Shown here piece by piece: positions 1 through 31,400 of a DNA stretch of 64,000 bases. Both the position numbers and the translations under genes were made by a program. Under the pieces are notes generated by a model. The model worked only from the letters and a program-made list of their open reading frames with translations. It did no database searches and was not told the origin of the DNA. Location of the stretch: assembly GCA_002633005.1 (NCBI GenBank), contig NMRA01000593.1, forward strand, positions 194,880-258,879. Reading direction: 5' to 3'. Position 1 is the first letter of the stretch. Each line of letters opens with the position of its first letter. Source of the stretch: Phoronis australis. Taxonomy: Eukaryota > Animalia > Phoronida.

Positions 1-575
1 ATTCAAAAAAGGAATAGATTTTTCATTAAACTTCTTAATTTGTTCCTTAAGTACAAAAATGTGGCATGTTAAAAATTGAAATTGCGAAGCCCTTTCATCA
101 ACTGAACTTGCATCAGATGAGCTATAATTAAAGGTGTATTTCGTCCTGTTCAGCTAAGCTAAAAATGGAAATATAATGGCATTTCACCCCACATGAAATC
201 AGTCTCATAATATTCCTTATTGTGACATCACTCCATTACCATTACCAAGAAGATCGTCAAAACCATTAGTGACTCAAGAAAACGTTCTACAGTTTATTGC
301 TGTTGGCCTACCCCAAAATTGTGAATTCGAAAAAGAAACGTGGAGACATTTCCTGTGACCTCTGTTGCCTGCTCACCTGGCAACAACTCAAAATCGGATG
401 AGCGAGGTCACGTCTTTAAACCTCAAAGTTCTGTGGTTAAGAATCCAACATTGATAGCTAAACAGGAGCTAATTACATCAAGACAATAACAACAAAGCTT
501 AGAAAAGTGCATCAAACCCACTCTATTACTAGTAATGATAATGTAGCACAGCGCCCCCTCGAGATTGAATTTTAC

Positions 576-3500
576 CGTGGCCAAAAACAGTTCCGTTGGC
601 ATTTCCAGACAGCCGGAAGTCAAGATTCTGTTCACATATGATGTCGATCAGATGTGAGCTGGTGCCATGAAACAGGTGTTTTTCGTTCAAGCCTGTGGGG
701 CCATTCTTCTCCAACATCAGATTTTTGTGTCTGTGAATAGGCGCATTAATATACAAATGTATAAAAATAACTAATTGTTAATTACTGCATTTGTAGAGGC
801 TCTCTACAGGGAGAATGCCTGACGCAATGTCACATTGTTTAAGCACTTACTGCACATATGTCACATTGCTAAAACCATTGTATGTAAAGATACCATAGCT
901 CCCAGTAAATGGAAGTATATTCCTTAGAATGTGTGGCTAAGCGGTTTGAGCTCTGGACTCCCGTTTGGGAGACCCAGGTTCAAATCCTGGCTTCAATCGA
1001 GCAAACAATCGAGCATTGCACAAAAGTGTCTCCTACTGCTCTGAGCAAGTTTCGATAAAGAATGTCATTGGGAATCCATTCTATTCATTAAACTACTACC
1101 AGATATTTCACCAAGAATGGTGCAGACAGTCAACTACACAAAATTTGTCTAATTTCACTCTATCACACTCATTGAAAAAGCATAAAATCGTCATTGTGAC
1201 TCACAACGAGTAACATCGCCACAGATGAGGATTCTCGACCCGTTCAATGGAGGTAATGGTGGCACTCATGGTGAGGTAGAACTTAGCGGCGACCTCCTTG
1301 TACTCTTGAGAGTCCCCTTCCAGCAGTATTTTCACAAAGCCCTGAAAGCAACAATGGAGGAACATGGAGTTTTATGAAATAAACGATAAGTAAATTATTT
1401 ATAATTTGTGGACGGACTTAAAATGAGTTTGGTTCAAGTTTAAGTACATTCATATAATATTCCAGGATCCTGGCTGTTAAAAGTGGATGTACGCCACTCA
1501 GTATAACCCTATACAGCACACACCAGAAGAAATCTGACAATATTGTGTCTCCATAATGACTGGCCATTCTACCTACTATGCTGATGAATTGTACTTGCAC
1601 TGCGCCAGGTAATTCATTTTGCACTCAGCTGACACGACAGGGAATTCTGGGTCATTTTGTCAGATTGCATTTGGTGTCTACTATAAATAAGCTGATATCT
1701 CCAGAAAGTAATTGCAGATCACAGCACAGCAGTAAAACTAGTTGGCGTTGGAAGGGCAAACAGAGTAATGCCACTAAGAAAAACTTGCAAAGAATCAAAC
1801 AACAACCAACAACATGTGGAACTCCAATGGCACGAAAATGAGGCAGCAAATGTGCCACGAAGATATTTGCTGCATTGTGGGTAAATACAGCGAGATTTGA
1901 GTGTCACAGTGTAATCCTGGACGACCCTATTTAAAGCTGGATTTCATCACACTTAGCTTTCAATGTTGAATTCTTAACCAAAGTGCTTTGGGGTTTAAAA
2001 ACATGACCACGTTCATCCAATCTCGAATTGTAGTGGAACAAGTCAGCAACTCAGGGCACAGGCAATGTGTTCATGTGCCATTTCAAATTCATAATTTTGG
2101 GGTTGACCCACTAGAATAAACTCTTATGAATTTTTTGAGTCGCCGATTATTTTAATGTTCTTGTTGGTGACAGATTGGAATAGAATCATATCACAGTAAA
2201 GAATATTGGAAGACTCATTTTATAAGAGTAAAAGTCCTAAACTCAATTTTTGTTTTTTCACAAATGAACAGGACAAATTGCAATTTTAAAATTATCTTTC
2301 CACTTTCATGGAGCAAAAATTTCTTCAGTTCCATTAAAAGTGATTGCTGCAGCGTACAAGTCCTTGGAACAAAATACAATTTGCTGTTCATTTCCTGTTG
2401 AGAAATTCAACAAAATCAAATTTCACTTTTCCGCCACATTACATTTTAAACCAAAGCAAGTCTGCTGAGGTAAGAAAAAATCTTTCTCCTCTCCCTGTGA
2501 CACTAGGCCAGTGTATATGAAGTGTACACCTACTCTCACCTGTTTAGAAGGGTCCCTGGTTACCCAGTTGTCAGGTATGTCTGGACTCTTCTCTATTCCA
2601 CATTGACTGTGAGTAGAATTCTCATCCTCAGTGAACTCTTGTTTACAATAGCGGCACGTGGACTGAAATCAAACACAGGACAAAATTAAACAAACGTCTT
2701 TTGGTGACAACAATTGAAATTACCATGGTCTCAGGATGTGAATTCCAATCCTGAAAGTACTCAAACAATTTGAATTTCAGTTTTTCAGTATCTAAATGTG
2801 AAATTCAAAAGTTATACTTAAATTTCTCATATTTTCCATTGATCAGTATTAGCTCTAAAGACAAGTGCCTTTAATTTTGCACCCGTCTATATTATATATG
2901 ATACCATGGCACTTTTTTATTGCCTGGCTGACATAACAAAACGGACTCTTTCGAACAAAATACCTAAACCGTGTACTACAACACACTACCCACAACGGGA
3001 CGGTGTATTCCTGCAAACCACATACTAGACAAAAATAAAATACATTTCTTTTATCCTCAATCTCCAGCTATATATCAAGTAAACCCATCAGTTAACTACA
3101 TCCACCTGTTGCCAGACACTACATTTACCTGTCTACACTGCGGACAAGTTAGCACCTTCACATCATCATCAAGATGGACAACCAAATTACAACCGGGGCA
3201 GCTAAAGAGAACAAAGAGGAGAATTGCACGACAGTCAAGCAGGTAAACACAAACACAAACAACAAAATAGGCAGAACCCAAGAAAAATTCCAAATTTGCC
3301 TATCTTCACAGTGAACACCATACTTCAGAAGTGCTTAATCGGATTCATATGAAACTTTCGAGCTCATAACTTTTTCGTGAATGCCCACAATTTTTGAAAA
3401 TATTGTCCGAGTCGTAGCTATGGTAACAGAAGGGTACACATGGAATAGCAAGAATTGGTTCCAACACGTCTTTGATGGAAAAATGGGAAATAAACATTCA

Positions 3501-6500
3501 CCACATTGTGTCCTAAATTGATGAGATTTTTATCATAGATAAAGACTGAATTTCCAAGCTCAAAAATAAGCTCATAACCAGATTCAAGATCTTTCACACA
3601 GAACACTTACGCAATCATGCCTTGTGCATTCTCAATTTCCTTCAAGGCATCATGCTCCATGCGCTCTTCAATGGCATCAACGATAAATGATGGCAAGATC
3701 TTTCGAAGTTCAACTGTAAGTCAAAGAAGAAGGAAATTGAAATTAGAAAAAGGTCTTGTCGAAGTAATGTGGGATTTCAACAGGTAGTGTCAACATAATT
3801 GATTGTTCCCTGCCCCTAACATAATTGATTGTTCACTTCCCAAAAGTAATTTCATTAATAGTGACCTGGCAATGAACTTACCATTCAAGCACATCATCAT
3901 GTGCATTACATGTCTAAAGTCTACAAATGACTTAATTATCCAATACATGAAACATAATTGCAAGTAGTTTATCCCGTTCAATTCGCCATCTTTTTGATCA
4001 CATCACGTGACCTAATGTATAATATAAGTCCGAAAAGATTTCTGCCCCCGACCGGGACTCGAACCCAGGACCTTCTGCTAACCGTGCAGACGCTCCATCC
4101 ACTGAGCCATCGGGACCACTGGTCAGACACAGAAATCCAATCGGACTTAGTAGTGGGCATCTTGCCCATGATCTCCATTGTGTACGTAAATATCATCTTT
4201 TTCACATTAGGTCACGTGATGTGATCAAAAAGATGGCGGATTGAACAAAAAGATGGCGGATTGAACGGGATAAACTACTTGCAACATATTCCAAGCCTCA
4301 CTTAAAAAGATGATATTTACATGAAAAATATTATTAAGTGAAATAACTGGCTCACAGTATCACATCATTGTTTGCATAGCAAGCTCCTTTCCAAGAAGAC
4401 AGAGCTTTTTGCATTTTCGCATTATCAACAAACCTGACATTACTAGCGGAGTTACATTTACATAATACACTTCCTATAAAGGTGTTAGGTGAATTCATAA
4501 GGCTTAACCACACGCCACCTGTTGAGATGGCACCACATTACCTAATGGTATGGAGTACCCACAATCCTTCACTGGGCAGTCAACAGAAAACTGTAACAAA
4601 GAAACTTTAATCAGTATCTCATTCATGAACCTAACACTACACAGAGATAAAATCACAGGCAGGACAAAGTGGGCAACAGAATATTTTTGTTAAGAAATTT
4701 TCACCAGGCAAATTGCAATAATGAAAAAAATATAATCGACAACTGAAATTTTGCGTAAATGACACTCTATAAGATTTTGTAACCTGGACTATATACTTAT
4801 GAAGGACACATTCATTGATAATAGAAAAATAATGTAATATCAAGTACGACCTAAGTTACCTCTTTGCCTTGGCCTTTAATGGCTTTCTTTGCATTATCTT
4901 CCATACATTTCCCACAAGTCAGGTGACCATCAAAGCAGACAACGAGCTTGTCGGGCAAGAATAAGGTCGAACAGGAGTCACAGGGAAACTTACTCTCTAA
5001 GGTTGGAGGAAAAGTACTTGTAATATTAAGAAGAGAAAACAAAGGTTGGTATGTTATTTAATAATTGCCTGTTCATATAACATAATGCAATCAAAGGTAT
5101 TCTTCAAATCAATCAAATTTCGTAAATTGACAAATAAACCAAGCTAGTGTGCTGAATTAGAGGAGAAATACTGTATTAAGGGGAACTGAATCAAAAACAA
5201 ACTTAAAACAAATAAGTTACCTGCATCGTCTTTTGTTGAATTGTGTTTAACAGGAGAGAGATTAATCCACGGCGACTCCCTGTCAGTATCATCATCAAGT
5301 AAACTCCTAGCCAGTTCATCATCGGTATCATCATTAAGTGACCCGTCATCACCATTGCGGGCATCATTGACCTCTCTTCGACGTCTACCTTTTAAAACTA
5401 CCCGTGGTAAATGTTCCTCATATGACCTACTAAGGTATTCTTCGGCATTACCTGAGACGGGTGACATCTTATTGGTCCCACCATTGCGCTCAGATAAACC
5501 GTTGGATTTTTTCGGACTATCGTCAATATAAATTGACGCCGCTGAAGACGAAAAATTCCTCTTCTTACTCCTATTTTTCGATACTAAACTAAGACTTGGC
5601 AATGCGTCGTCATCATTCCCAATGTTTAAAACACTTGGTAAAATATCTCCATCAGATTCGTCACTGCTGTGGTCACCAGTTCCAATCACTATCGATGACA
5701 ACCGCTCCATCGATGAATTAATATACCTGCCCTTTGAAATGCCTCCAATCGCACGGCCATTACTTGTCTTAACAACAGAACCACTGGGCTTCTCAGATTT
5801 GTTTTTAAACAAATACTTTGTCCCATTTGCAAGTCCTTTACCCTTGCTACGAGAAACAACATGTTCATTGACAATTTCTTCATCCGCCAGTTCGTCATAA
5901 TCTGGCAATGAAGCTGAATAATCAACAAGTTTAGCACGTTTTGCGATAAACTCTGGTTCACCTGTAGAGCTCCCATTTGATCTGTCCACCAAATGTTTCC
6001 CTTCAGTACCGTCACCAAATCCATTACTTTTGCACGTCATTTCATTTGACCCCAAAGCAGAGCCTTCCCTCACCAACTTCCTTTTCTGAGAATGCGCTTC
6101 ACCATTTTTCTCATTTGGCGAAGTGGCAATTACGGTAGTCGCACTGACTTTAGGATATTCAGTCATGGAAGAGATGTAACCACATACACGGTCACTGAGA
6201 CCTTCGGTGCCGTATAACTGTCCCATGTCCGTCATCAACGACGTCAGCCATTTCTTATCCACTTCAGGGAAAATACTCGCCTGATTGAAGACAAAGAAAT
6301 AACAAAAGAAATTCAGCAGACACTCGAATCTGTCTAAAATAGATTCATCACGATGACGCAGAATTGTAAGAATTTCATTTTCCATTCAAAATGTATATGG
6401 GAACAGATTTTCTGTTGACATTTTATTCTGGGACTGGAAGACGTTTCAACACACAATACACAGATCAATGTAAGTTACAAATTCTAAACTGAGCTTAAAC

Positions 6501-6713
6501 ATGTCATTTGACCAAGGCAGAAAACAAATAAAGTTTGTTCTGTAAAGCATTATTCTGTTAAATACTTCACAACGCCCTATTGAAGCAGTATTAAAATGAG
6601 TGAAATTTCCAGATAAAATTAAAAAGGATCTCACAGTTAAAAAAGTTTCAAGAATATTTAGCACTCACCACAGCTTTGAAAGAATCTTCTGAAATAGGTC
6701 GACAGTCAGCCAT
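576..6713 (-). CDS. Multi-exon gene (3'-incomplete): N-terminal CUE/UBA-like helix bundle + long disordered region + RBR-type RING1 and IBR zinc fingers + PARP (mono-ART-like) catalytic domain
   Basis: Hand-spliced exons, all GT-AG and phase-consistent: 6713-6669 (MADCRPISEDSFKAV), 6280-5221 (ASIFPEVDKKWL...KDDA), 4996-4860 (ESKFPCDSC...CFDGHLTCGKC...), 4590-4542 (FSVDCPVKDCG), 3713-3611, 3201-3129 (CPGC...CPQCRQ), 2662-2540 (STCRYC...H..C...PDNW), 1341-1205 (DSQEYKEVAAKFYLTM..ITSIERVENPHLWRCY), 730-576 (NEKHLFHGTS...ICEQNLDFRLSG..GTVFGHG). About 627 codons lie in the window. The next PARP exon (GxYFA) was not found, so the gene runs off the left edge. Confidence 0.85.
932..992 (+). repeat. 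tRNA-derived SINE head remnant
   Basis: A-box-like TGGCTAAGCGG and B-box GGTTCAAATCC at tRNA-like spacing; no intact acceptor stem; intronic. Confidence 0.5.
3958..4284. mobile_element. ~330-bp element with ~60-bp inverted arms enclosing a tRNA-like sequence (4044-4116, minus)
   Basis: Arm 3958-4018 (TTGCAAGTAGTTTATCCCGTTCAA...CACGTGACCTAATGT) is the reverse complement of 4204-4284, which carries an extra ~20-bp duplication. The minus-strand core reads GTCCCGATGGCTCAGTGGATGGAGCGTCTGCACGGTTAGCAGAAGGTCCTGGGTTCGAGTCCCGGTCGGGGGC. Confidence 0.7.
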
Positions 6714-8007: not shown

Positions 8008-10101
8008 TGAACCATTTCATATCGCATAATCATCCTCAACTTGTCATTTGGGCAAGATAGATCATTGCTGTTGGCGGTGTCACTTGCTTAGACTTGGAGC
8101 CCCTTCTGTGTTGGCGGTATCAGTGCCATTTTTGTCATTGATCGAGGACAGCAGCCCATTACGAGATATCAGCATTTTGAGGAAATCCCTGGATTCAGGG
8201 GATATAACGTCATACCACCTGCTGTGCGCAGTGTTAAAAATGGCCAGTTTCAAATTTTGGGAACTGAACGATGGACTACTCTAATAAAAAGTTTGATAAC
8301 GAAAGAATTTGTTTGAGTTGGAAGGAATTAAAGGCATCTACGGCCTCCTAAGCTGTCCCTCTATGAGCAAAACCTACTAACTTATAACATGATTTTGAGG
8401 ATTTTAATCAGTGTGAAGCATAACTCGCCAAAAAGCTTCCGGAGTATGAAGTGCCTACAGGAGCTTCACCGTCTCTACTGAACCAGGTAGAGACGGTGGT
8501 CACTGTCCGGTGGTCTCCTAGCCTAGTCAGCCTGGCTGATAGACAGTGATCACCGTCTCTAGCTGAGTAGCCCAGTAGAGACAGTGGAGCTGCATACGCC
8601 AAAAGCTTTTCGGTGAATTATGCTTCACACTGACTAAAAAATCAAAGTCACGTTATAAATACCTTTTGCACATAGACAGACACCTTAGGAAGTCGTCGAT
8701 GTATTGAATTCCTACCAACTCGAAGATATACTCCCGTTATCAAACTTTTTCTTCAAACTGTCCCTCGTTCAGTGAACCCAAAATCGGTAACTCGCCATTT
8801 TTAACACTGGACACGGCAGGTGGTATGACGTCATATCTCCTGCCATGCGGGTGTAAAAATGGCAAGTTACCGATTTTTGGGAACTGAACTGGGGACTGAT
8901 TGAAAAAAAAGTTTGATAACGGCAGTATTTCTTCGAGTTAAAAGTAATTAAATACATCGACGGCCTAATAAGGTGTCCCTCTATGTGCAAAAGGTATTTA
9001 TAANGAACCATTTCATATCGCATAATCATCCTCAACTTGTCATTTGGGCAAGATAGATCATTGCTGTTGGCGGTGTCACTTGCTTAGACTTGGAGCCCCT
9101 TCTGTGTTGGCGGCATAAGTGCCATTTTTGTCATTGATCGAGGACAGCAGCCCATTACGAGATATCAGCATTTTGAGGAAATCCCTGGATTCAGGGGATA
9201 TAACGTCATACCACCTGCTGTGCGCAGTGTTAAAAATGGCCAGTTTCCAATTTTGGGAACTGAACGATGGACTGCTCGAATAAAAAGTTTGATAATGAAA
9301 GTATTTGTTTGAGTTGGAAGGAATTAAAGGCATCTACGGCCTCCTAAGCTGTCCCTCTATGAGCAAAACGTACTAAATTATAACATGATTTTGATGATTT
9401 TAATCAGTGTGAAGCATAACTCGCCAAAAAGCTTCCGGAGTATGAAGTGCCTATAGGATCGTCATCGTCTCTACTGAACCAGGTAGAGACAGTGGTCACT
9501 GTGTCTCCTAGACTAGTCAGCCTGGCTGATAGACAGTGATCACCGTCTCTAGCTGAGTAGCCCAGTAGAGACAGTGGAGCTCCTATAGGAGCTGCATACG
9601 CCAAAAGCTTTTCGGTGAATTATGCTTCATACTGACTAAAAAATCAAAGTCACGTTATAAATACCTTTTGCACATAGAGGGACACTTTAGGAAGTTGTCG
9701 ATGTATTTAATTCCTTCAGGCTCGAAGAAATGCTCCCGTTATCAAACTTTTTCTTCAAACTGTCCCTCGTTCAGTGAACCCAAAATCGGTAACTCGCCAT
9801 TTTTAACACTGGGCACGGCAGGTGGTATGACGTCATATCTCCTGCCATGCGGGTGTAAAAATGGCAAGTTACCGATTTTTGGGAACTGAACGGGAGACTG
9901 ATTGAAGAAAAAGTTTGATAACGGCAGTATTTCTTCGAGTTAAAAGTAATTAAATACATCGACGGCCTAATAAGGTGTCCTTCTATGTGCAAAAGGTATT
10001 TATAACAACATGACTTTGATGTTTAAGTAAGTGTGAGGCATAATTCGCCGAAAAGCTTCCGGCGTATGAAGCTCCTGTAGGAGTTCCGCCGTCTCTACTG
10101 A
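8008..10101. repeat. ~1-kb direct duplication (8008-9003 / 9005-~10000) of a foldback repeat built from alternately oriented ~270-bp arms
   Basis: GAACCATTTCATATCGCATAATCATCC begins both copies and an N at 9004 joins them. Each copy reads arm A, palindromic spacer, inverted arm A', arm A, with symmetry centres near 8525, 8830, 9520 and 9835. Confidence 0.85.
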
Positions 10102-12213: not shown

Positions 12214-15200
12214 ATGACAGAGGTATGAATACTTACGGTCAGACTTAAGTTTAGTGGACCTGAGTTCTACGTCCAGGTGCTTATTAGAGTGAGGCAAAGA
12301 CAACCACCACTCATGGTTCAGGGGCAGGGCAGGGTTGACAGTATTCAGTAACCACCGTCTCTAGCTGCCAGTAAAGACGGTGAATCTCCTATTGTAATGT
12401 CGTCTTGTTACTGTTAGGCTTCTTGATGATACGTTGTAGCAAATGAGTGCTGTCAAAAGAAAATAATTATACTACATACGAGTCATCTTTGTAGTGTTGC
12501 ACATTGAACCTCCATGGCATCAGAGGGCTACCTCACAATCGGTTTGTTGAGGTGGCTATTGCGTGACTTTAATGAGGTGAATCCGCCGAAGTGCTCCATA
12601 GCTAATTGCACACAACAATATAAGATATCGGTTGTAGTTGCATAGGTGGGTGACCGGCAGTGGGTCCATGATTTAAAATTGAATTGAGAACCTGAGTTAC
12701 TTCACTGAGTAATGGGCATTATTCCGTCGTAGTTATCGTTATCAAATCAGGAACACATCATGTATCCGACTATAAACCTAAGATACCCAATATGCAAGTG
12801 TTGCTGGTAAACAACACAACAACTATAGCCTCTTGTCTGTTCACTAGCAGCATTCGTCTCCTCCAAAAATAGTAGCGACCAATCTTATATTGTGCACTGT
12901 TCATTCGTCTCATTCTGACACGATGCATGCCCTTCACTTCTTGTAGTTATAACTAAATCAAGGAAATAGTCTGATATAACATGCCTGTATTTTGAGAGCC
13001 AGTTTGATGCTTGTTTTTCAGTGGAGAAAACTGGTTCTCAAAAATCGGGCACGTTATTTTAATTGTATCCGATCATTACGCTAAAGCAATCCTCTGTCGA
13101 ATATCTTGCTTTATACTTATGGGTTTAATCAAGAGTCCCAAAATTTACCTTTTGCAGTGCAGGTGGAGTTTTAATTAAATTTGCCATAATATTGTCAGAA
13201 ACTTTTGTTTGGACTGCATGAATTGAAGCTTGACTGAATTGTTTTAAAAATTGTAATAAAGTACCCAGATTTAACTTCTCCAGACAATGAATGACCATTT
13301 GCTTACCTGTAATAATTGAAAGTAATTGGCTTTGCTATTGTTAAGTGTGTTTTATTTGAACTAAACTTGGACTGTGGCATAATTTTAGGAAAAGAAAGAA
13401 ACAAAAGTGGACCCAACCAAAGATGCACTGTCGATCAATGACAGTGCATTCGAATCTCTGGAGAAGGACTTCCAAGATGCTTTGGCTGAACTCAAAGGTG
13501 ACAGAAGTTTGGAGAAGTTCCGTGTGGAGTACGAAAAGCTTCACCGTGCCTTGAAGAAGTCCCACGACAGTGAGAAGAGACTGATGCAGAAATGTCGCGA
13601 GCTCAATGCAGAAATTGTTGCCAACTCTGCAAAAGTCGCCACGGCGCTGAAATTATCACAGGAAGACCAAGCTACTATCGCCTCTCTCAAGAAGGAGATA
13701 GAAAAGGCATGGAAGATGGTGGATGCTGCCCACGAGAAGGAGACACGGGCAAGAGAGACAATCCAGTCTCTGAAGCTTGAGATCTCTAATCTAACAAAAC
13801 TGGTGGAACAGGGAGCTGGCTTAACCATGGGCCAGGAGCACAGGTAGGGCATTGGATTGCAAAAGTATGTTTATAAAATAAATTTGTTTTGTTCAGTTTG
13901 TTTAGGTGCACTCTGACATAGAAGCAATTTGTGTTTAATGGTACAGTATGTGGACGGTGTTTTTAACTAACATTGAACTGAAGTTAGAATTAACAGGGCT
14001 CGACGCTATTAAAATCGCCAGGTCGCATTTTGCGACCTAGCCAAAATCCCAAGTCGCATTTTCAAAATCCANTGAAGTTAGAATTAATGGATCTGTACAC
14101 GTGCTGCCGTTCTTACTTTGTTACGATTTCAATGAAATTCAGGTCGTCATTAAGATTGTTTTTTCAATCAATTTTGTTTATTGGTGCCAATGACTGTTTG
14201 TTCCCCCCTAGTGTTAACGAGCTGTTGAAACAGAAGGAAGACCTAACCAAGGAGCGTGATGACGCGCTAGGTGAGGTTGTCAAACTACGTGAACAAATGA
14301 CTAATGCCCAAGACCAGCAAGGCAAATTGGAGCAAGACAGAGCAGATGCTGAAATGAAGATATCTGAGGTAGATCGCCATCTGGTGGCTTCAGATGTTAA
14401 CCAGTAATACAAGTAACTATAGCAGCTCTAGTCACCGTTTTGTGAGAGCTGAGGAAAATCTTGGCACCATAAGATAGTAGAAAATCGTGCACATTTTAAC
14501 AATTGGCTTTTCTTGATAGACAGAAACACTGATGCATGTGCATCCCAGTCTCCCAGAACAGTAGTTCGTAGGATATCTAACAATCTTGCTACATGGCTAT
14601 TTGCATTTTTTCGGTTTCTGCCAATCAGTAGATCTGGTGGCTTGGTATATCCACTGCTGATACGAGGTTTCCCCATGCCTGTAAAAAAATAATCAATGTC
14701 AACTGCTGGGCTCCCCAACTCCTGTCGGCCTAAAATCTGTGTGTTTAGTTTCTTGTTTATGATACAGAATTTGTGCTGAGAACTACATACACTCAATGTC
14801 TCAGTGTACTGGCTGGTCCAAGAAGTCATCTGAGGGCTTACACATTCAAGCCTCATTCAGAGCGACAGGAACGTTGCTAAACATTTATTGAGGCACAGGT
14901 GTGACTTACCCATTATGTGGTGGTCAGACTAGCTCTTACTTTGTGCAGGAGAAGAAAATTACATTTTATACGTTCTTTCTGTTATAAGTGAGATAAAAAT
15001 TCGTGCTACATCCTCATTTTCAATCTTTCTTGCAAGTATATAATTTAGATTGGTTCAATTTATGCTATTTTAGTTCATTTCTTGTGTTATAATTTCGTAA
15101 CCAAATATGTGTTAATGCCACTGGCTGAAGGTAGTGTTGCTGCTTTGCTACTCCATTTTGAACTGTAAGAACGTCCATAGTAGCTTGGCACTGTGGTGAA

Positions 15201-18200
15201 TTGTTCGCTAATGCTGTCCAATCACATTCCAGCTGAAACAAGATATCCAGATGAGGAACAACGAGGCTCAGCGGGAGACGCGTAAAAAGGAAAAGATGGA
15301 GCGTGAGCTCAAGCAAGCGCGCGCCGATCTTGACGCGCGCTCCTCTGACATTAAGTCAATGACGACCCAGATCGAGCGCTACAAACAAGATGTTGCCAAA
15401 CTAGAATCACAGCTCAAAGAACAAAGGGTGGGTTGGCACCAGTGCACTATATGCGTGTTAGATTTTTAGTGTTGGAGCACTGTGAATATGTTGCCTAACC
15501 AATGAAAAATTTATCATGATTTGTACCCTGTGAAAAATAGTGAATTGGTAAAATTCATACTATTCATAAATAGGTGTCATGATTTGATACACATGATTGA
15601 CTTCGCTGGTTCAGCCGAGTCAACCAGGTGAGATACCTGATTGGTTCTTGATGAGGACTTTTGGCTTACAGACCAATGACTTCTCTGCTTGACCACAGGC
15701 AAAGCTGGCAAAGTCAATCAAGCACAGCTAGTGTGCCAGTTATCTAGTGTAGGTGAACTATTGTATCAACAGGTCACATGGAAATGAAAGTCCCACCAAA
15801 ATATTGCAAAGCAGTGGTGCCATCTTTCATAGTTGTACCTTCTGTTTTATATCAACCGCTATGATGGCTGAAAATTAATGTATTAGTTTTAGTCAGAATT
15901 TTTTTTAAAAAATAAGCTTTAGCTTTTGTTGCAGAAGATCAATGTCTGCATTGCTTATTTGAAAGGTTGTTCCTACAATATGGCCGCTATGGTCAGGTTG
16001 ATATCTAAAGACTCTTATGAATTCTATGTGTTCCCCCATTGTTCAGGTGATGAATGAGCGAATCACCAAGGACTCGGATATCTTAAATCAGCGTTTCCAG
16101 AAGCTACAGGGAGACTTTGAAGCTCAAATCGTCGCCACAGACAGTCTGCACGGAGAGAACCAGGCCAAAGTGTCGGAACTAAAGGTATGACGCTACTATG
16201 TTTACATTACAGGCAACTTGAGTGGAAACAAATTAATAATTATTTGTTTATTGATGTTAATTCTTCAGCCAATCTGAGACAAAAAAAAAATTTAAAGCAT
16301 TTGAAGGGTTGTCTCGTGGTGAAGCGCTTTGGGGGCTCAAACATTACCACACTCGTGGATTGTTGCACCATTTTCGAATTTGCAATTTAGGGCTGGCAAC
16401 CCCCAATAAACTCTGAAGTATTTTCTTAAGTCGCTGATGGTTTTAATCTTCTTGTTGGTAATGGAAATAGAATTCTATCGTGGTTAGAACTAGTGTGAGA
16501 CGAATTTTGTGACAGTAAAATGGCTAATTTGATTTTTTTAGCAAACTAACCTGGGCAAAGTGCACCTTTAAATTGAATGAAAATATTTGCTTCATTTCAT
16601 TGATGCCATCTTCTAATTAATTCTTGTGATAGTGCCATCTATTGTATAAAACTTACACTGTCCACATGTTGCATTGTCAATTACCCACTTACCTATTTGG
16701 TGTATTCTTCTGTAGCAAAAAGAAGATGAGGTGGGCGCGCTCAAATCGGAGGCACAGCGCATGTCTAAGATGAGAGAGACTGTCCAGCGCAAGCTGCGCA
16801 CTGTAGAGGATCAGAAGGCAGACGTAGAACAACAGAGGGAGACACTGAAGAGCCAGATTACTGGCTTAGAGCGAGGTACAGCATTTAATATTTAATAGTT
16901 AGGCAAATGAACACATTCTCAATCAAACCCCTTAAGCCAGTCTTGGCAAGCAAAAACAGAAAATGTTTCAAGATTTTTGGCATGTGCGCTTTGATCTGTA
17001 TCAATGACGTTTGACAAAAAGATGGTAGGCTTACTTGAACATCATTGCAGAATATTTAAGAAACAGACAGTAATCTGGAATTTCAGTATTTAATTTATAA
17101 AATAATGTTTTTGAAACTGTTCTAATTCAGCACACATGGATGTGTGAAATAAACTGTCAGTTGTCACCATATCAAATTCTCCAATAAGTTTGGCTTGTGT
17201 TTTGATATCTTTTTTGCATTTGAGCCTCAGAATGTGTTAATTTTTACTGCAGCATCTGTTAATTTTTTATCGTGTACCTTAATTAGCAAAAATGTAATGC
17301 GGTTTTAATTGGTTGACAGAGCTTGATGCTGCCAAGAAGCAAGCCGAAGCTGACAGAAAGGCCATTGATGATCTTGTGAGAGAGAGGGACATTCTTAATA
17401 AGGTAATGTAGTACACAGTCACAGAGGAAACGTGTGCGTTTATCATACGTGTTGTCACAATATGAACTGATCCAGCTTCTGGCTCCCGCTTTAAACAAGA
17501 GTACTTTGTCTAGTTTTGACTGATTTAGCAAATGTTGCCACAGTGGTAGATGGCGCTCCTCACCCATTGTTCAGCTGCATTTGTCACTCCACAGAGTTTT
17601 TTCTTTGTTCCCTCCTTGTTAAGTCAAATGCTACCTCTGACATACCGTTGCATCTTGTCATGTACAGCCTTTAAAAAATAATTGCAAGTGGGCTGGTACG
17701 CGTTGTACCAGATGTGCGCAATCCGCTCAGTGAACCTACTCCACTGTTTACCTGTTGGAGCCTTTAGATAACGTGCCAATTATACTGTCAAAACAACCAA
17801 ACTGAAGACTAAAACAAAAGCTTTCATTGTCTCAATAAACAATTTTCTGATCATGTCCTGTCTTGCCATTGAGTTAATTCCACCTGTCACTCATCGCGTA
17901 TATCTCTCGTTTTGTAGAACATGCTGAAGGCGGCAGGTGCCACCCAGAAGCAGCTGAATTTGGTGAAACTGCACGAGCAGTCCAAGAAGAACCTGGAGCA
18001 GGAGATTCAGAATTACAAAGAGGAGGCGCAGAAACAGAGGAAGATCATCTACCAGCTGGAGAAGGAGCGGGATCGCTACATCAACGAGGCTAGCGACCTC
18101 ACCCAGAAGGTGAGTTGAGGGGCAAGAGGAAGGAGAGAAAAGAAAATGGGGTAAAACTTGCATAGCTCGGATCGAACGGGTCCAAGTTCGGCAACGATTC

Positions 18201-21200
18201 GACTTATGTGTGTCGTACTTAGACACGTTTTGCTATTGATCTATGGTAGATTTGTTGTAATTGTTGTTGTTATTGTGTGAGCTGTAGATTGCTACGTTTT
18301 TGGCTCCTACCTGTATATTACCAATATGTCAGAAGTTTTCGAAATTCAGAAATTTCTGACAGAAGTTGAGTCATTTGTTGGCGTTTTTGTGATTTTGTGC
18401 TTGTTATCGCTATAATTACTAAATCGTCTTCATCCTCAGGTTCTGCAACACATGGAAGATGTGAAAGTTAGAGAGATGCAGATCTTTGACTACAAGAAGA
18501 AGATCGCCGAGGCAGAGACCAAGCTGAAACAACAGCAGAACCTGTATGAGGCCGTCAGGAGTGACCGGAACCTGTACAGCAAGAACCTGATTGAATCACA
18601 GGTGAGACCATGAGGGCCCTCTGTCTGTGGGGTCTGTAGGTGTGGGTCAGCTCTTGGAGAGACGTTTATGATAATCAATTGAGATTTTAGGAGTTTCTGG
18701 TGTGAACAAGTTTTACTTTAATTGAATCTGGCTAAGAGAAGGTCAGTTTCGTAATTAGAGTAATATGAGGTGAGACTGCTCATAAGAATGCATTATTGGT
18801 AATGTGCTGAAATTAAGAAACTTTGCTAACTTGTGCAAATACATCAACATAAAAATCATACTTTCTTTTTGGGACAGATATGTGTTGAAAAAACGAACCA
18901 AAATTGGTGTCCGCAATTATGATTTTTGTGTCACTGTTTACAATATGCAATTTTTGTCTCGGTGATAGGATGAGATTACGGAGATGAAGCGCAAGCTGAA
19001 GATCATGAACCACCAGATTGATCAGCTGAAGGAGGAGATCTCCTCAAAGGAGGCAGCACTTGTCAAGGAGCAGCTGGAGCGCCAACGTGTGGACAAGGAG
19101 AAAGAAAGCCTGAAGATGGAGTTGCAGAGGATGAAACAACAGGTCAGTGGAACAAGCGAGCTGGGATGTCATAGGTTGAAGTTTCGATATTATTAAAGAT
19201 CCGATACTGAGTTTAGCATATTGAAGGATTTTTTATCTAAAACAAAATCTTTCAAAAGTTTGCAGCGTGTTTTGTTAGCTTCTTCCTGAGAGTTTGTTCA
19301 ATGGAAAAGCGTCATCTGTTTGTTGCCAATCAGTACCTGTGTGTGTATATAACTCCATAGCATACACAATCAACTAAATGGATAGTGTTAAAGGCTTTTC
19401 CTTGTAAAATACCTTGATTGTTCACAGGCGTCAGAGAGCAAGGCATACATTGAGGCTCAAGAAGCTGAAGAACGTAAACTGCTAAAGATCATTGCTGAAG
19501 CCGACGCTGAGCGTGTACGTCAGAAGAAGGAGCTCGATCAGGTGATCAGCGAGCGCGACATCTTGGGCACGCAGCTGGTGCGCCGCAATGACGAGTTAGC
19601 TCTCCTGTACGAGAAGATCAAAATACAGCAATCGACACTGAACAAAGGCGAGATACAGTACAACCAACGTCTGGAGGATATCCGTGTGTTGAAGCTGGAG
19701 ATTAAGAAACTGCGACGGGAGAAGTCGATACTGCAGAAGAGCGTGGCTAATGTAGACGATCTGAGGTGAGGGGAAATGTAGTGTATTTCCATTAGCTTTT
19801 ACTTAATAGGTATTATTTGAGATAAATGTGGTTACAGACAAGCTTAGGATGAGGAAGAATGATGTTTTAGTGGTAATAGCTGACTTTCAAAATAGCCGCA
19901 CCATATTGAAATTCACTAACCCGCCAGACGGCAATCAGGTCTTGGGTGGACAGGCATTCAGCGCCACCTTCAGAGCCCATGTAGTGCGGATGGGAGGTTC
20001 AAACGTACCGATGCCTTTCAACACTCAGGGCTTGGAATTTTCCGCGGAAACGCGGATTTCCGCTTTTTTGAAATGTGCTTTCCGCTTTTTTATAATATTT
20101 CCGCGTAAAAAATCGGATTTGATATGAAATTTCCGCGGCAAATTCCTTTCTTACCGCGGCGTTGCAGACGACGTTCACCTCGGAAAGCGGAAGTTGCTCT
20201 TTATGTTTCGGAGGAACGTAAATTGTCAACATTGCCGGGGCATCTGGGTAAAGCGTGGTGTGATTTTCAGTGGCGGCTCGTGTTATTGTTAAGCGCGGCG
20301 ACAAATACTACCGCTCTGCAGCCAAAATTGTGTGGGTTGGGAGTGGACGGGCGAGCTAAAAGGACACAGACGCATGCTACTGATGGTGGTAACATTTTTT
20401 TTTTTTTAGTCCTCCCAATTTTTGTCGCGGAAAGGTTCACATTGACCATTTCAAAGGCTGGTTATCGGCCATGATTTGGGCCGTAAAAGTTTCCGCGTTT
20501 TTTGTCATTGGTCATTCCAAGCCCTGAACACTGAACCTGCTATTACAATCCTGGAAATTTCCAGTGCTGTGTGGTGAGATGCCTTACGAAAAAGCCAAAT
20601 CTTTTGAAATATAAATTGATGAGCAAGGGTGTCCTGTTCCATACATTTCTAACTTTAAAGATGTATCAGGCTGCGACAAAGCCAGTGGTTGCTGCTGATA
20701 AAGCGAGAGAATTTTGGTCCCAGCTGGTGTCAAAAGGCTAAAATAAATTAGCCAACTTTAACTAATCAAACAATAGGAGGCGCTGACAGTGGAATTATGT
20801 CCTCTCCTTTTATATTGATGAACCATTGTGTAGTTGTTGAATTTCTGTCCACTAAATCTGAGTTGGAATCAATCCAAAGTCACTTTCTTGCTCTCATTAC
20901 TCTAGAGAGCACCAATATAAAAGTCCCCTATTAGTGGCTTCATTGTCAAGGTGTCATTACTTGTTTTCTCAAGAGAGTCATTTAGCTTTTCCATGTTAAG
21001 CACAAATCATGTCACTGTTTGACCATCTCATGCAATTTTTGGCTGGTCATATCACTCTTTAGGTAGCTGTGTTAACCACCCTTAAGTGCTGTGACCAGTG
21101 AAGTGTATAATGTATTGTGTGTTTACAGACGTGAAGTGTACCACATCCAGCGTGAACTGCTACGGGAGCGTACTCGTTGCAAGGCACTTGAGGAAGAATT

Positions 21201-23176
21201 GGAGAATCCCATGAATATTCACAGATGGAGGAAACTAGAGGTAATTTTTCAACTGACTGTAATGACTGGAAACATTGACATATGCTACATACAGTGAGAC
21301 TGAAACAAGCACCATTCATGGCTATTTGAATGTTTTTTTATCAAATGGTAGTATTTCTAAATCCATATGCTTTAATTCTATTAATCCTGTAATTGAGAAA
21401 TAAAATGCCTGAGAGCTCTCATGGTTAGTTTTGAATCAGGCACATGAATCTGATAAAAGTTGTTGTCACTTTAGAAATCACGATGATTTACTCTTCGGTC
21501 AGTGATTGGTTCAGCCAAGACTAAATCTAAAAGCTTCTCTGCGGTCAGTCGAGGTTACTTTTGATTCTCTAGTGTGTTCATTCATCGGGAACTTACTGTT
21601 TGTCCTTGTATTCCAGGGCAGTGACCCAAGCACCTATGAAATGATTCAGAAGATACAGACGCTGCAGAAGAGACTGATCGCCAAAACCGAGGAAGTTGTC
21701 GAGAAAGAGCTGCTCATTCAGGAGAAAGAGAAGCTGTACGTGGAACTGAAGCACATCTTGGCAAGGCAGCCAGGCCCAGAGGTGGCAGAACAGCTGCAGA
21801 TCTATCAGCAGACGCTCAAGGAGAAAACGAAACAAATGAAGGTAGGTGGATGAGTCAGGTTGCAATGTTTGTCAGAAGCAAGGAGATGATAGTTGTATAA
21901 TATGTGAACTATAGACCCACAGTAGGTAAATATGTCTGTTTGTTGACTGGAATAAAAAACATGTTAGTTTTGTCAAATTGATTGGTTTACTGTAGTTATT
22001 ATGCATTTTAATTTTCAGTTTAGATGTTTGAATCAAGATTGCTGTTGAAGATCAGGAACAAAAGCTTGGTTCAATAATTTGATCTGAGTGTCTGTATAGG
22101 TCACGGTCACTTTTTTGCTTAACTGGTCCTGAACCTCCAATTGAGCTCTTACCATATTTCTTTTGTCTGTCAAAAACCAGTTACCAATTGAACAACTTGT
22201 ATTTAGACTGTCTTGAATTAGTATCGGTGTTTGTTTCGTGACATTTTTACGAGGAGCTAAGACCGAAGACAAAAGTTTCATAAAATGGTCCCTTGTGGTT
22301 TCTTGGAAGGTTCATATTTAATAGCGTGCTTTAATTTGCGCAGGGCATGGCGTCGGAGTTGAACATGTACGAGTCACAGGTGCAGGAGTACAAGTATGAG
22401 ATCGAACGACTGGCGCGTGAACTGCAGGAGGTAAAGAAGAAGTACTACATGCAGCGGAGGAAGGAGCAACAGCAGAAGTGAGTAAACAGGCTCCATCGGA
22501 TTGTATTATGCAGCGTCAATGTAATTTAAAAGTTGGTTGTCAGATATTGGAGATACGGCCTTCCTCAATCCTGGAGGAATTTCACAAAGTATAGTCATCT
22601 GGGGAAAAGTGTTGTCACACTTAAGTCAGAAATTTGGTGTTACACTCCCTCTGTGCTATTTGTAAAGTAAAGATTTTTGAATGTAATTGTTTACAGTTAA
22701 GTAATAATTTATACAAAATTTTGTAAATAACTAGCAAAATTTGAGAATATTCTCAAAGACTATGTACTTTGCTGCATCGAGATTAATTTATTTTTTAGAA
22801 GTGGTGATGTGGACCGTTTAACCTGAATTTCTGAGTTAAGCCCCAAGACGTTCATTTTGGAATAAACTAATGAAAATACTATGTATGTAATAGGTGTTAT
22901 TTTGGGTCCAGTCATTGTGAGAAAGATTTTGTTTCAATAATCAGCCAAATATCAGGACAATCTTTGTGTGAAAGTTGTTGTCTAACTAATGCTTCTTCTT
23001 TAAGTTTTCCTCTATGTGGTAAGTACATATTATGTAATGACTTAAATTTTCTTTTCAGGGAACGTGAACGAGCTATCGCTCAAGCAGGTCAGGCAGCCAT
23101 ACAACCTCAAAGGACAGATGCTGCCAGATTCACCGGAGGGGGATTTAACTTGAAGGCAACTAAAGGGGTGTCTTAA
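12214..23176 (+). CDS. CFAP58: Cilia- and flagella-associated protein 58 (CCDC147), complete, 15 coding exons, ~883 aa coiled coil
   Basis: Exons 12214-12222, 13389-13843, 14212-14368, 15233-15427, 16047-16184, 16716-16875, 17320-17402, 17918-18109, 18440-18601, 18969-19142, 19428-19765, 21129-21240, 21617-21841, 22344-22477, 23059-23176. Total 2652 nt, all GT-AG and in phase. Recognisable motifs: SAFESLEKDFQ, SLEKFRVEYEKLH, ERDILGTQLVRRNDELALLYEKIKIQQ, ENPMNIHRWRKLEGSDPS, RFTGGGFNL. The 9-nt first exon (ATG ACA GAG|GTATGA) is the least certain. Confidence 0.95.
13994..14072. mobile_element. Truncated CAGGG-terminated MITE end at an assembly N
   Basis: CAGGGCTCGAC... starts right after TGAAGTTAGAATTAA (13979-13993), and the same 15-mer recurs after the N at 14072. 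Confidence 0.4.
20026..20526 (+). mobile_element. MITE, TIR CAGGGCTTGGAAT, 6-bp TSD AACACT (hAT-like termini)
   Basis: Perfect 13-bp TIRs; AACACT at 20020-20025 and 20527-20532; a highly similar inverted copy lies at 58943-59436; in CFAP58 intron 11. Confidence 0.9.
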
Positions 23177-28407: not shown

Positions 28408-31400
28408 TTAAATACTGCCGACTGTATTACATTTCTGTAGCTTAGCCTTTCCGATATCATGAAAGTCAAATATTTCAAGCAACAATGGCTCGAGTGCGTC
28501 CGGGTCACAAGACAGCAAAACTTTGCCGTGATTTTCAGAGAGTACGCGAATTTCCGACAATTTCATCATCAATGCTGTGTGTATGGAGAAGGCCTCGGCG
28601 TATCCATACGTTGCTTCCAAATAGTGCTTCAGCAAAGCTGAATAGCGATCCTGAAGATTAGATACATAGGCTTTAGAGCCGACGGATGCAAATATGGGCG
28701 TGAACAAACATGTGATCTGTAACAAGGCAATAGTGAATGTGTCGTCCCGCAACAGTTTGCGAAGTTCTTTGACAAACTTGAGGTGCTCCATGTGAAGGGT
28801 CTTGTTGAAATCTTGCACAGCATCGTGGAGCACAGTTGACGGAGTCTCACCACGGGGGGTGATCCACGCATCCTTTTCCACCGAGAACAACTGGGCTGAG
28901 CGAATAAAAAGGCACGTGAGTGTCATCCCCTTCAGGATGTTGATCTGATCGACTTGCTCTAACGAGATAAAGTCATCGATTTTTTTTGCAAATCGTATCA
29001 GACGACGTACAACTGCTCCCATACTGTTTATAAGAACGTTGAGGTTGATCTCTTCTGTCATGTCAGGGGGGTGTATGTCCTCCTCTGTGTTGCCAACGGT
29101 TACCATATACAGCTGCTCAAACTGACGGATCAATGAATTCTCCTCCGGCGTGAGTTGTCTATGACTTTCATCAGAGTCATGGGGATCGTCTGCAAGGAAT
29201 GACAAGGAAGTAGAATAGATGGCAAGATACATACTTTGGTTCAATCAAGAAAAGACCACAAACTTTTGAGTATTTCTGAGTATTTTTGAGTATTGTTGCA
29301 GATGTGATCAGTTAGGCCTATGGCTGATTCATTCAGGTTAAATGTCTCTCTAAACAAGTCATTAAAGGACCAGTGTCCAGTTGTCGGCCTCGAAACTAAA
29401 CATTAAAACTGATCTATCTGAACATAAACTTAAAAAAACGATAAGTGGCATACAGCTTCAAATGCACGTTTGTAGGTTGCTCAGAATAGTGTCAGTTTGA
29501 AAAAAACAAAAGAATGTTTTCTACACAAAATCTCAAAATATAATTACCCAAAAACTTAGGAGAAAGACCCAACTGTTTATATGGGAACTTTCAGTAAAAG
29601 ATTGTGGGCTGAGTTTATTGGACATCCCACCTTTAAATCAAGGTCGCAACAAGAGACTATCACTGTCTTAAAGTGGCAATAAAAACACTCCCCGTCAAAA
29701 AACTATTACAGAACTGGTCATAACTTGCTCCTTACTCAGATTAGAAGTGATTTTTAGGTTAGGGGAGAATGGTAAGTTTGTTATTTCCTTGGTACAATAT
29801 GTTGGCAGCTAATATAGGGTCGCACAAGGAGAATAGGAACCAGCATGAACGCTGCGTCAGTTTTTTTCAAGCCAAGAAATGAATCCCTAGCATCAGAGTA
29901 AAGAACATGATAGGGTGAGTTCTGAAGCAGAAATTGACCAAAATCAAACCATAGACTGATTTTTTTTCAAGATTTGCCATTAAATGATGGATGAGTTGAA
30001 TAAGAATCATGTTTAGCAAAATGTTAATTTCAACTAACGTATTCGTTTCATTTTGTTAGCATGCTGCTTTTCATGAAGACCAAAGTTCGACCGTACCTAA
30101 ATTCACGCGTACTCAGAGTAAATGGTCAGTTCTCCAGCACAGGATTGGCAAAATGCGTGAATACCAGTTCACTGAGCCTCGTCTGAATAAAACTAAATGA
30201 CAGAAAAATACTGTCTTACTCACTCCATGGGAAGGTCATGGGGACATTACGCTGAGGTAGAGTAGATGACGAAGCGTTCTCACATGCTGGCCCCATGGAT
30301 TCACTAGTCTCCGATTTGATGGCCACCAGCACCTGTCGACGCTCCCTATTCATTTTTACCTTCATTGTACGTTTCTGTCGCTCTGTGTCATCTGTAAAGA
30401 CAGCCAATGCCCAGTCATCACGTGACTTACCACAGAGCATACATTGGCAAATACCACTGTGACAAAATTTAAGCTTCCACTAAAAAAGAATTAAGCAGAG
30501 CCGTCAATGCTACATAACTCCTATCATTTGCATGATTGACTTTAACATAATTAAGTGATTCCAAAGGTTAAAAAGAAGTTAGATCCACAAAAATTCTGTT
30601 ACTTTGTAGTTACAAGAAGTCATGGAGACATACTTTGGTTAATATTTACCAATCTGGTCAATACGCCATCTGTTGGCCACATTTCCTGACCTCAATGACC
30701 CACAGTACGTGAAGTCCAAGAAATTCAAACCGTGACAGAAATCTGCTCAAAATGAAAGAGAAAATGGGCCACAAAATGCGACCAGTTCGCGTTAAGACCG
30801 TCACCTGTCTTACCAAGAATCATGTCTTTCTTCATACCAACATCTAAACACTTCTGCAGTCTACAGGCAGAGCAGAACCGTCTCGTATTGATGTCAATCT
30901 TGCAGTCTTTTGAGAACATACATGCGAGAGGCTGTAATGTAATAACATCAAATGTTAGATAAATCATACTACTTTCTTAGCACACAACCTTTCACGGAAC
31001 CCGTACATTCTAAAAGTGTCCGAAAATATGCAAATAATTGCAGGCAGTCTGATACACGTTGTACCCATTGCAGTGAGCACCTGGAACCATTTTTATGCTT
31101 TATGAATGTATAGTTAAAACCAAACTGAGGACCTGAGACCTGACTCAAGGGTCTAGCAGTGTGCCCCAGCGGGACTCAGTTCCACGACCTTTAGTAAAGA
31201 AAGCGGACACTTGTATCACTAGGCCACACTGCATTCACATTCCAACCACATATCACTGCCCATTTGTTTAGACACAACGTGTGACAGAATTCCTTTGACT
31301 GCTCTTGACCTATCCTTTACCCACCAAACTTTACCAAAGACTCAATTTGCCAATTGACCAATAGCATGTAAAGTAAAAATTGAAATTAATTATCTTACTA

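Follow-up and report, generated by a model that had tools for sequence, protein, structure and literature searches.

What does the front half of a ubiquitin ligase do once its catalytic end has been replaced by a different enzyme? The question is raised by a gene at the left end of a 64,000-nucleotide stretch of the Phoronis australis genome (contig NMRA01000593.1, positions 194,880 to 258,879; hereafter the window, to which all coordinates refer). Ligases of the RBR (RING-between-RING) class require, after the IBR, a RING2 with a catalytic cysteine. The Phoronis gene is transcribed, and splicing yields a single protein in which an RNF216-type RING1-IBR is joined directly to a PARP12-type ADP-ribosyltransferase (ART) domain. 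It lies on the minus strand and has nine exons in the window, amounting to 1882 nt and 627 stop-free codons, with GT-AG borders at every intron:

6669..6713, minus strand: coding part of exon 1, with the ATG at 6713; residues 1-15; its junction 6669/6280 is found in 8 reads and 1 contig
6170..6689, minus strand: CUE/UBA-like three-helix domain, a putative ubiquitin binder; residues about 9-52, spanning intron 1
5221..6280, minus strand: exon 2; residues 16-368, largely a low-complexity linker with basic patches
4860..4996, minus strand: exon 3; residues 369-414, with RING1 ligands C374-C399
4542..4590, minus strand: exon 4; residues 415-430, with RING1 ligands C419 and C424
3611..3713, minus strand: exon 5; residues 431-464, the RING1-IBR helix, which is the allosteric ubiquitin site in RBR ligases
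3129..3201, minus strand: exon 6; residues 465-489, first half of the IBR, with V479 at the position of the Rcat catalytic cysteine
2540..2662, minus strand: exon 7; residues 490-530, closing part of the IBR with C492, C495, H507 and C510, followed by the beginning of the ART lead-in (W522)
1205..1341, minus strand: exon 8; residues 531-575, ART domain
576..730, minus strand: exon 9; residues 576-627, part of the ART that includes the D-loop and the triad His597 (HGT); the next splice leads out of the window

The zinc ligands are C374, C377, C389, H393, C396, C399, C419 and C424 for RING1, and C466, C469, C484, C487, C492, C495, H507 and C510 for the IBR. Trp522 of the ART lead-in stands 12 residues past C510 in the same exon. 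Since the IBR finishes and the ART begins within one exon, 2662-2540, the fusion is independent of any splice. Exon 2 has no Pfam match and the corresponding region of homologues is predicted with a local distance difference test score (pLDDT) below 50.

RNA reads cover 8/8 junctions, with 8-27 reads each when runs are summed. They come from three stranded raw-read runs bearing the same species label (X1, X2 and X3), of each of which about 18-19% was read. Counts are given in the order X1/X2/X3:

6669/6280, minus strand: 0/3/5 reads, plus one X4 contig
5221/4996, minus strand: 10/4/13 reads
4860/4590, minus strand: 9/0/10 reads
4542/3713, minus strand: 7/4/13 reads
3611/3201, minus strand: 2/6/10 reads
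3129/2662, minus strand: 4/5/14 reads
2540/1341, minus strand: 6/5/9 reads
1205/730, minus strand: 6/12/9 reads

Two junctions (6669/6280 and 4860/4590) each lack reads in one run. The first mate lies on the plus strand in all junction reads, the pattern expected of minus-strand RNA, and no exon skipping within the gene occurs among the splice joints listed for these runs. A first-pass annotation, made from the letters of the window alone, had proposed one spliced gene of nine exons; the reads over all eight junctions and the open frame of 627 codons bear it out, and the junctions 3129/2662, 2540/1341 and 1205/730, which it had singled out for checking, recur exactly in RNA. Reads of 151 nt link neighbouring exons only, a single full-length molecule being beyond their reach, and their scattered base differences from the window indicate that they likely come from other individuals. 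That zinc-finger and PARP exons belong to separate genes is ruled out by the junction reads and by exon 7, which holds both the IBR end and the ART start. A pseudogene is rejected within the window by the stop-free spliced frame.

RNA depth continues upstream of exon 1. At the other end the gene exits the window at 576, from where three reads in each of X1-X3 splice to outside sequence. Its translation by hand continues in frame with the G-x-Y-F-A...S motif of PARP domains; the GxYFA exon that was to be sought to the left is thus found in nine reads. Loose read ends lie at 575 beside exon 9, and five reads (four in X3 from two starts, one in X1) pass beyond exon 9 into intron sequence below 576 (514-575), where a stop follows 15 codons on. 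This form would terminate before the triad Tyr; the five reads could reflect a truncated isoform or RNA yet to be spliced.

The RING1-IBR module is assigned to the RNF216 type by several comparisons. Family counts refer to 17 sequences, the window protein and 16 database homologues that share its RING1-IBR-ART order. All 16 zinc ligands, eight of them in RING1, are kept in 17/17, and the IBR ligand pattern follows the RING1-IBR helix in every one. RING1 in a homologue model has pLDDT 86-96 and a fold matching RBR RING1 domains. The RING1-IBR of P0079, a protein of the scallop Ylistrum, matches RNF216 with an expect value (E) of 4e-20, ahead of ARIH2 (4e-5) and HOIP (1e-3), along chain positions 7-142, stopping before RING2; the family profile reaches RNF216 with E 1.2e-27. 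Foldseek with the model of the oyster fragment P0191 gives RNF216 (8eb0) as top match (E 4.8e-7), the only one below 1e-3. RNF216 is not among the 50 rows listed by a wide VIA structure search, which is led by other RBR RING1 domains (Z 7-9). Individual IBR matches are fainter: exon 6 of the window hits Pfam IBR_1 below cut-off (E 3.9e-4) and has the RNF216 IBR as its best PDB match (E 0.12), and Pfam IBR_1 or IBR is at or above cut-off in 3/16 homologues, below it at E <0.01 in seven more and without a match in six. Together the sequence, profile and Foldseek matches uphold the RNF216-like RING1-IBR of the earlier proposal.

IBR and Rcat share a fold, and the second finger was therefore tested for Rcat identity. 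Column 479, the Rcat catalytic-cysteine position five residues before the third ligand, holds V, I, L or A in 17/17; its equivalent in RNF216 RING2 is C688 (chain position 181). An IBR-less RING1-Rcat ligase is ruled out, since no sequence has the catalytic cysteine and the finger aligns to the RNF216 IBR and not to RING2. An Rcat-type pattern is found in 0/16 full-length homologues, nor does one occur in the three minus-strand frames of window 1-6713, the 3' exons of the gene lying outside. The late RING2 for which the first-pass annotation had advised to look is found in no complete homologue. By its sequence the protein falls outside the RBR E3 ligases, the RING2/Rcat with its catalytic cysteine being missing.

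The domain in the place of RING2 is, as had been proposed, a PARP-type ART, and both sequence and predicted fold specify it as PARP12-type. Exon 9 matches Pfam PARP with E 3.2e-5 and has PARP12 (2pqf) as its best match (E 2.8e-8); the family profile matches PARP12 with E 8e-61, and Pfam PARP is above cut-off in 16/16 homologues. HGT is present in 17/17 sequences, and GxY[FL]A with a third-position Ile in 15/15 complete homologues, which hence carry an H-Y-I triad, that of the mono-ADP-ribosylating (MARylating) PARP7, 10, 11 and 12 (PMC9149570). For the window gene, His597 lies in exon 9 and the Tyr is read from the nine reads leaving the window. WWE or CCCH domains give no Pfam match at E 0.1 in 16/16 homologues, nor in the eight window exon frames scanned. 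By architecture the protein is not an orthologue of PARP12, PARP7 or PARP11, and its predicted fold and triad are those of an H-Y-I mono-ART.

An unusual feature of this ART in 15/15 complete homologues is an insert of 134-309 residues that follows the GxYFA strand region and precedes the next strand; in 27 other ART domains of the homologue search this interval is 9-32 residues long. The insert is 59-75% G/N/Q/S/F/P/T with 0-14 FG pairs; the corresponding part of the window gene lies outside the window. In an AlphaFold2 model of the homologue P0162 (16-row alignment; mean pLDDT 56) the folded parts score mostly 60-91 and the insert below 30. The two halves of the ART are predicted to close across it, with a template modelling (TM) score of 0.90 normalised to the PARP12 target 2pqf and a root-mean-square deviation of 2.2 A.

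A third element stands at the N-terminus. Three helices with an MFP/IFP/WFP motif are found at residues about 9-52 of the window protein and in Lingula, scallop and oyster homologues; IFP of the window protein corresponds to MFP of the Tollip CUE. The window N-terminus matches the oyster homologue P0159 in phmmer (E 3.6e-5, 16-protein set). Pfam CUE stays below cut-off in 2/16 homologues (E 0.011 for P0159, and 0.098), the Tollip CUE 1wgl matches P0191 with E 0.3, and model helices 192-238 of P0191 match UBA/CUE folds with Z 5.2-5.7, level with unrelated bundles. The element thus resembles CUE/UBA domains weakly by each test and is a putative ubiquitin binder. The RING1-IBR-ART order of the first-pass annotation stands; this CUE-like domain had been missed, and the large ART insert was beyond its view. 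SUMO-interacting motifs were also counted in the 17 N-termini (15 versus 9.8 expected from shuffles, or 3 versus 1.4 for a narrower pattern); the patterns having been chosen after some motifs were seen, this reading is not adopted. RNF216 itself is described in a preprint as acting when SUMOylation is blocked (10.64898/2026.06.26.734426).

The homologues were reached from both halves of the protein. A HMMER search with exon 9 gives 163 proteins at E <=0.001; among the best 150 of the 163, at least two also match the window RING1-IBR, P0079 and P0022 of the brachiopod Lingula (E 3e-28 and 1e-25 in that set). A search with residues 545-900 of P0079 yields 18 proteins, 15 of them RING1-IBR-ART (query included) and three ordinary PARP12-like. 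Named sources of the 16 homologues are Lingula, four scallops, a pearl oyster, two Saccostrea, two Mytilus and Sinanodonta; one further entry clusters with Magallana/Crassostrea records. The range found beside the phoronid, molluscs and brachiopods, is that of searches limited by word and by length (576-1836 residues); exon 9 and exon 2, used as queries in word-indexed homologue searches, gave no match. Atlas searches with the homologues all score below 0.9 (0.84 to a 62-member PARP cluster, mostly Mollusca, and 0.75 to an RNF216 cluster) and are leads only. The layout, which the earlier annotation knew from no characterised animal protein, is accordingly not a one-off: it is that of a conserved family filed as 'uncharacterized protein', 'hypothetical protein', 'Poly [ADP-ribose] polymerase', once as 'RNF216-like' (oyster) and once as 'ABL1'.

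Identity of the window protein to its homologues is 27-46% in RING1, 36-47% in the IBR and 37-51% in the ART half; the Lingula protein comes closest in RING1 and ART. IBR and ART are 17-27 residues apart in the 16 homologues and 12 in the window protein. Fifteen of the 16 end 4-13 residues after the YPEY of the ART; in the remaining one, P0168, the ART is gapped and incomplete. Truncated oyster entries, ending after RING1 or inside the IBR, stop exactly where introns 5 and 6 of the window gene fall in the alignment, which suggests that these introns are shared with oysters. The N-terminal parts differ: fn3 precedes RING1 in 4/4 and SH2 in 2/4 of the mussel-type members (among P0164, P0165, P0166, P0168 and P0167), and the Sinanodonta homologue has a RanBP-type zinc finger. 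The family may go on acquiring modules at its front, or some gene models may be fused.

The function proposed for this protein depends on which surfaces of RNF216 it has kept. RING1 of RNF216 binds the E2 via its central helix, C517 and Y519, the central helix contacting F63 of the E2 in RBRs; the donor ubiquitin is bound chiefly through RING2 together with the IBR-RING2 helix; and an allosteric ubiquitin, with K63-linked di-ubiquitin as activator, occupies the RING1-IBR helix and an IBR strand (PMC9834252). Taken by itself, the RING1-IBR of HOIP binds polyubiquitin (PMC12441119). In the RING1-IBR-ART family the second of these surfaces, the IBR-RING2 helix with RING2, is wholly lost. S376 and S378 of the window protein align with C517 and Y519. 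The Y519 position is S, K, R, N, G, Q or P, hence non-aromatic in 17/17, as is position 403, equivalent to a central-helix Tyr of RNF216 which we take to have a role in E2 binding. Modal conservation over the 17 rows is 0.70 for the RING1-IBR helix, 0.68 for the central helix and 0.36 for RING1 loop 1, which holds the Y519 position and is the most variable.

We favour, with moderate confidence and by analogy, the hypothesis that the protein is a ubiquitin-chain-targeted mono-ADP-ribosyltransferase rather than a ubiquitin ligase, like PARP10 with a different reader. A ubiquitin reader is preferred because the donor surface is lost, E2 contact is doubtful, the allosteric helix is kept and RING1-IBR of HOIP binds polyubiquitin. 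In a possible scenario, the IBR-RING2 helix and RING2 of an RNF216 paralogue would have been lost in a lophotrochozoan ancestor, with a PARP12-type ART taking their place. The retained RING1-IBR helix and IBR strand, together with the CUE-like domain, would bind ubiquitin chains, of K63 linkage if the preference of RNF216 was kept. Chain binding would bring the ART to ubiquitylated complexes, and with NAD+ as the source either these or the protein itself would receive single ADP-ribose units. In a homologue the long G/N/Q/S/F-rich insert is predicted to loop out of an intact ART fold; it would serve localisation or entry into condensates. PARP10 provides a precedent of a working K63-chain-reading mono-ART (PMC9149570).

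Several points weigh against a ubiquitin reader. The E2-contacting central helix of RING1 is conserved like the ubiquitin-site helix (0.68 versus 0.70), with K405 invariant. The RING1-IBR helix of the window protein is just 20-27% identical to that of its homologues and is its least conserved domain segment. The conservation scores are unweighted and bivalve-heavy, and the comparison at Y519 was made against human RNF216, such that the loss may not be special to the family. The CUE assignment is weak. HOIL-1 binds di-ubiquitin directly but weakly (about 50 uM). RNF216 tolerates C517A, hence S or A at position 376 is compatible with E2 binding, and mutation failed to validate its allosteric ubiquitin site (PMC9834252).

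The first-pass annotation had RING1 recruit ubiquitin-charged E2 (E2~Ub) beside the ART, with E2 or ubiquitin being ADP-ribosylated or hybrid ubiquitin-ADP-ribose marks being built. The conserved central helix would suit this model, but the donor-ubiquitin helix and RING2 are gone, the Y519 position and position 403 are non-aromatic throughout and loop 1 is poorly conserved. Moreover, R660, E664, I672 and I683 of the IBR-RING2 helix, which RNF216 needs for E2~Ub discharge, fall beyond the matched region, and E2~Ub binding by intact RNF216 is undetectable unless allosteric di-ubiquitin is present (PMC9834252). Recruitment of E2~Ub is doubtful and we regard this model as unlikely.

Alternatively, the ART could be inactive or nearly so. 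The protein would then be a scaffold, binding ubiquitin, NAD+ or ADP-ribose and entering condensates via its insert; PARP13, for comparison, works without catalysis. The insert that splits the ART in 15/15 homologues, far longer than in the 27 other ARTs, fits such a role, as do the truncated forms (the five intron-running reads and the oyster entries ending after RING1 or inside the IBR). The invariant HGT, the GxY[FL]A motif with Ile in 15/15 and a fold predicted to close round the insert speak for an active enzyme, and make the scaffold quite improbable. RING1-IBR could also target the ART as a protein-protein module unrelated to ubiquitin, by dimerisation, by substrate binding or as a decoy partner for the RNF216 of the animal itself. 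Its fold is conserved while its surfaces drift (the window RING1 is 27-46% identical), and the N-termini vary (mussels have fn3 and SH2, Sinanodonta a RanBP zinc finger), so that targeting may come from elsewhere; the keeping of a second domain of ubiquitin-binding type, CUE-like, in the window protein, Lingula, scallops and oysters renders this very unlikely. That RING1 became an ordinary RING-type ligase, one chain then writing both ubiquitin and ADP-ribose, is scarcely credible despite a C3HC4 ligand set intact in 17/17, since RBR RING1 domains hold E2~Ub open and thereby prevent direct discharge (PMC9834252), the last two ligands are at least 4 residues apart versus 2 in canonical RINGs, and the E2-contact aromatics are missing.

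Whether the fusion arose once was addressed with the ART. In a tree of its N-terminal half (68 rows, 111 columns; P0164, P0166 and P0168 dropped by the filter) the window protein and 13 homologues lie on one side of a branch (90/73, unstarred). In a tree of both halves (33 rows, 190 columns), from which P0167 and P0168 are absent and 19 proteins without a matched C-terminal half were skipped, the window protein stands unresolved beside the family, a pair of Mind bomb-ART proteins and P0123. A clade uniting the family with MIB/ZZ-ART rows is not rejected (P value of the approximately unbiased test, p-AU, 0.153). The ART trees being only moderately informative, a single origin is likely yet not shown by the ART alone. 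Given the RNF216-type front and the fusion point that all share, and introns that they seem to share, the simplest view is one origin preceding the divergence of molluscs and brachiopods.

The Mind bomb-ART proteins were met among 49 proteins scanned with Pfam from the best 150 of the 163 exon 9 matches. P0046 (cluster 'MIB2-like', Argopecten), P0085 (Potamilus) and P0098 have a Mind bomb front ending in a PARP12-type ART; MIB repeats and ankyrins are found in 3/3 and MIB/HERC2 with ZZ in 2/3, and a RING pattern is present in none of the three. Judged from domain order, they are a second E3 family with an ART as catalytic end. It is tempting, if doubtful as a whole, to suppose that lophotrochozoans swapped E3 catalytic ends for a PARP12-type ART on more than one occasion, in RNF216 and in Mind bomb, and that the RBR allosteric site would act as a linkage-specific switch by which K63 chains trigger ADP-ribosylation within one polypeptide. 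The top exon 9 matches also include P0001, P0002, P0003, P0006 and P0011, with two or three tandem PARP12-like domains.

All component parts of the RING1-IBR-ART protein are already known, and domain shuffling is common among invertebrate PARPs. RING1 and the RING1-IBR helix, as well as the IBR, align with human RNF216/TRIAD3 (7m4m, 8eb0) without large gaps; unlike it, the family lacks the IBR-RING2 helix, RING2 and an equivalent of C688, has a non-aromatic residue at the Y519 position and carries an ART after the IBR. The family shares with PARP12/ARTD12, PARP7 and PARP11 (2pqf) its best ART match, the H-Y-I triad and the C-terminal place of the ART, but has RING1-IBR instead of CCCH fingers or WWE, and the ART insert of 134-309 residues. 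PARP10/ARTD10 is a functional analogue, an H-Y-I mono-ART targeted by binding K63-polyubiquitin (PMC9149570), although it does so via ubiquitin-interacting motifs (UIMs) and RNA recognition motifs and its ART is a weaker sequence match to the family than those of PARP12, 14 and 15. PARP9-DTX3L likewise brings ubiquitin machinery and NAD+ chemistry together and is tied to ADP-ribosylation of the ubiquitin C-terminus (PMC9149570); it consists of two proteins with a canonical RING and a DTC domain and no RBR parts. Single chains uniting PARP with a ubiquitin-pathway domain are described by Citarelli et al. 2010 (PMC2964712), as in the Dictyostelium U-box-macro-PARP DDB0232928 and the fungal clade 6A PARP-UBCc, which have a U-box or an E2 fold and not RING1-IBR. 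The term 'IBR' is absent from the main text of that article, whose additional files could list such proteins. No description of an IBR-PARP protein was found in the literature, subscription journals and InterPro architecture pages being outside coverage, in agreement with the earlier view that the layout was uncharacterised in print. The RING1-IBR-ART fusion is real, expressed as the Phoronis gene, conserved and apparently undescribed.

Work on crosstalk of ubiquitin and ADP-ribose deals with vertebrate proteins in which the two activities sit in separate chains or simple UIM readers are used. With this family, oysters, mussels and scallops offer a putative system for MARylation directed by ubiquitin within one chain, under gene names that are generic or misleading. 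Because RING1-IBR with all its zinc ligands outlasted the loss of RING2 in bivalves, a brachiopod and the phoronid, it is also a natural test of what this module does alone, be it ubiquitin sensing or E2 recruitment. The large low-complexity insert in an otherwise canonical ART fold is its second unusual feature.

Other features of the window are, in plain order:

3958-4284: element in intron 4, with a tRNA-Thr-like segment at 4043-4117 (minus strand) flanked by inverted repeats of about 60 nt (3958-4018 and 4204-4284)
about 8050-9900: near-identical open frames on both strands (8772-8999, 8708-8884 and again 9569-9886)
13389-21850, plus strand: exons of a coiled-coil gene resembling CFAP58 and oriented divergently to the fusion gene, with Pfam CFAP58_CC at 19392-19766 (E 4.7e-53)
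28411-29244, minus strand: open frame of 278 codons with an uninterrupted ligand-binding domain of the nuclear-receptor type (Pfam Hormone_recep, E 9e-10)

Judging from RNA depth on its two strands, which comes with many differences, the intron 4 element seems to be multi-copy and MITE-like (miniature inverted-repeat transposable element) or SINE-like (short interspersed nuclear element). The near-identical frames at about 8050-9900 point to a repeated element upstream of the gene.

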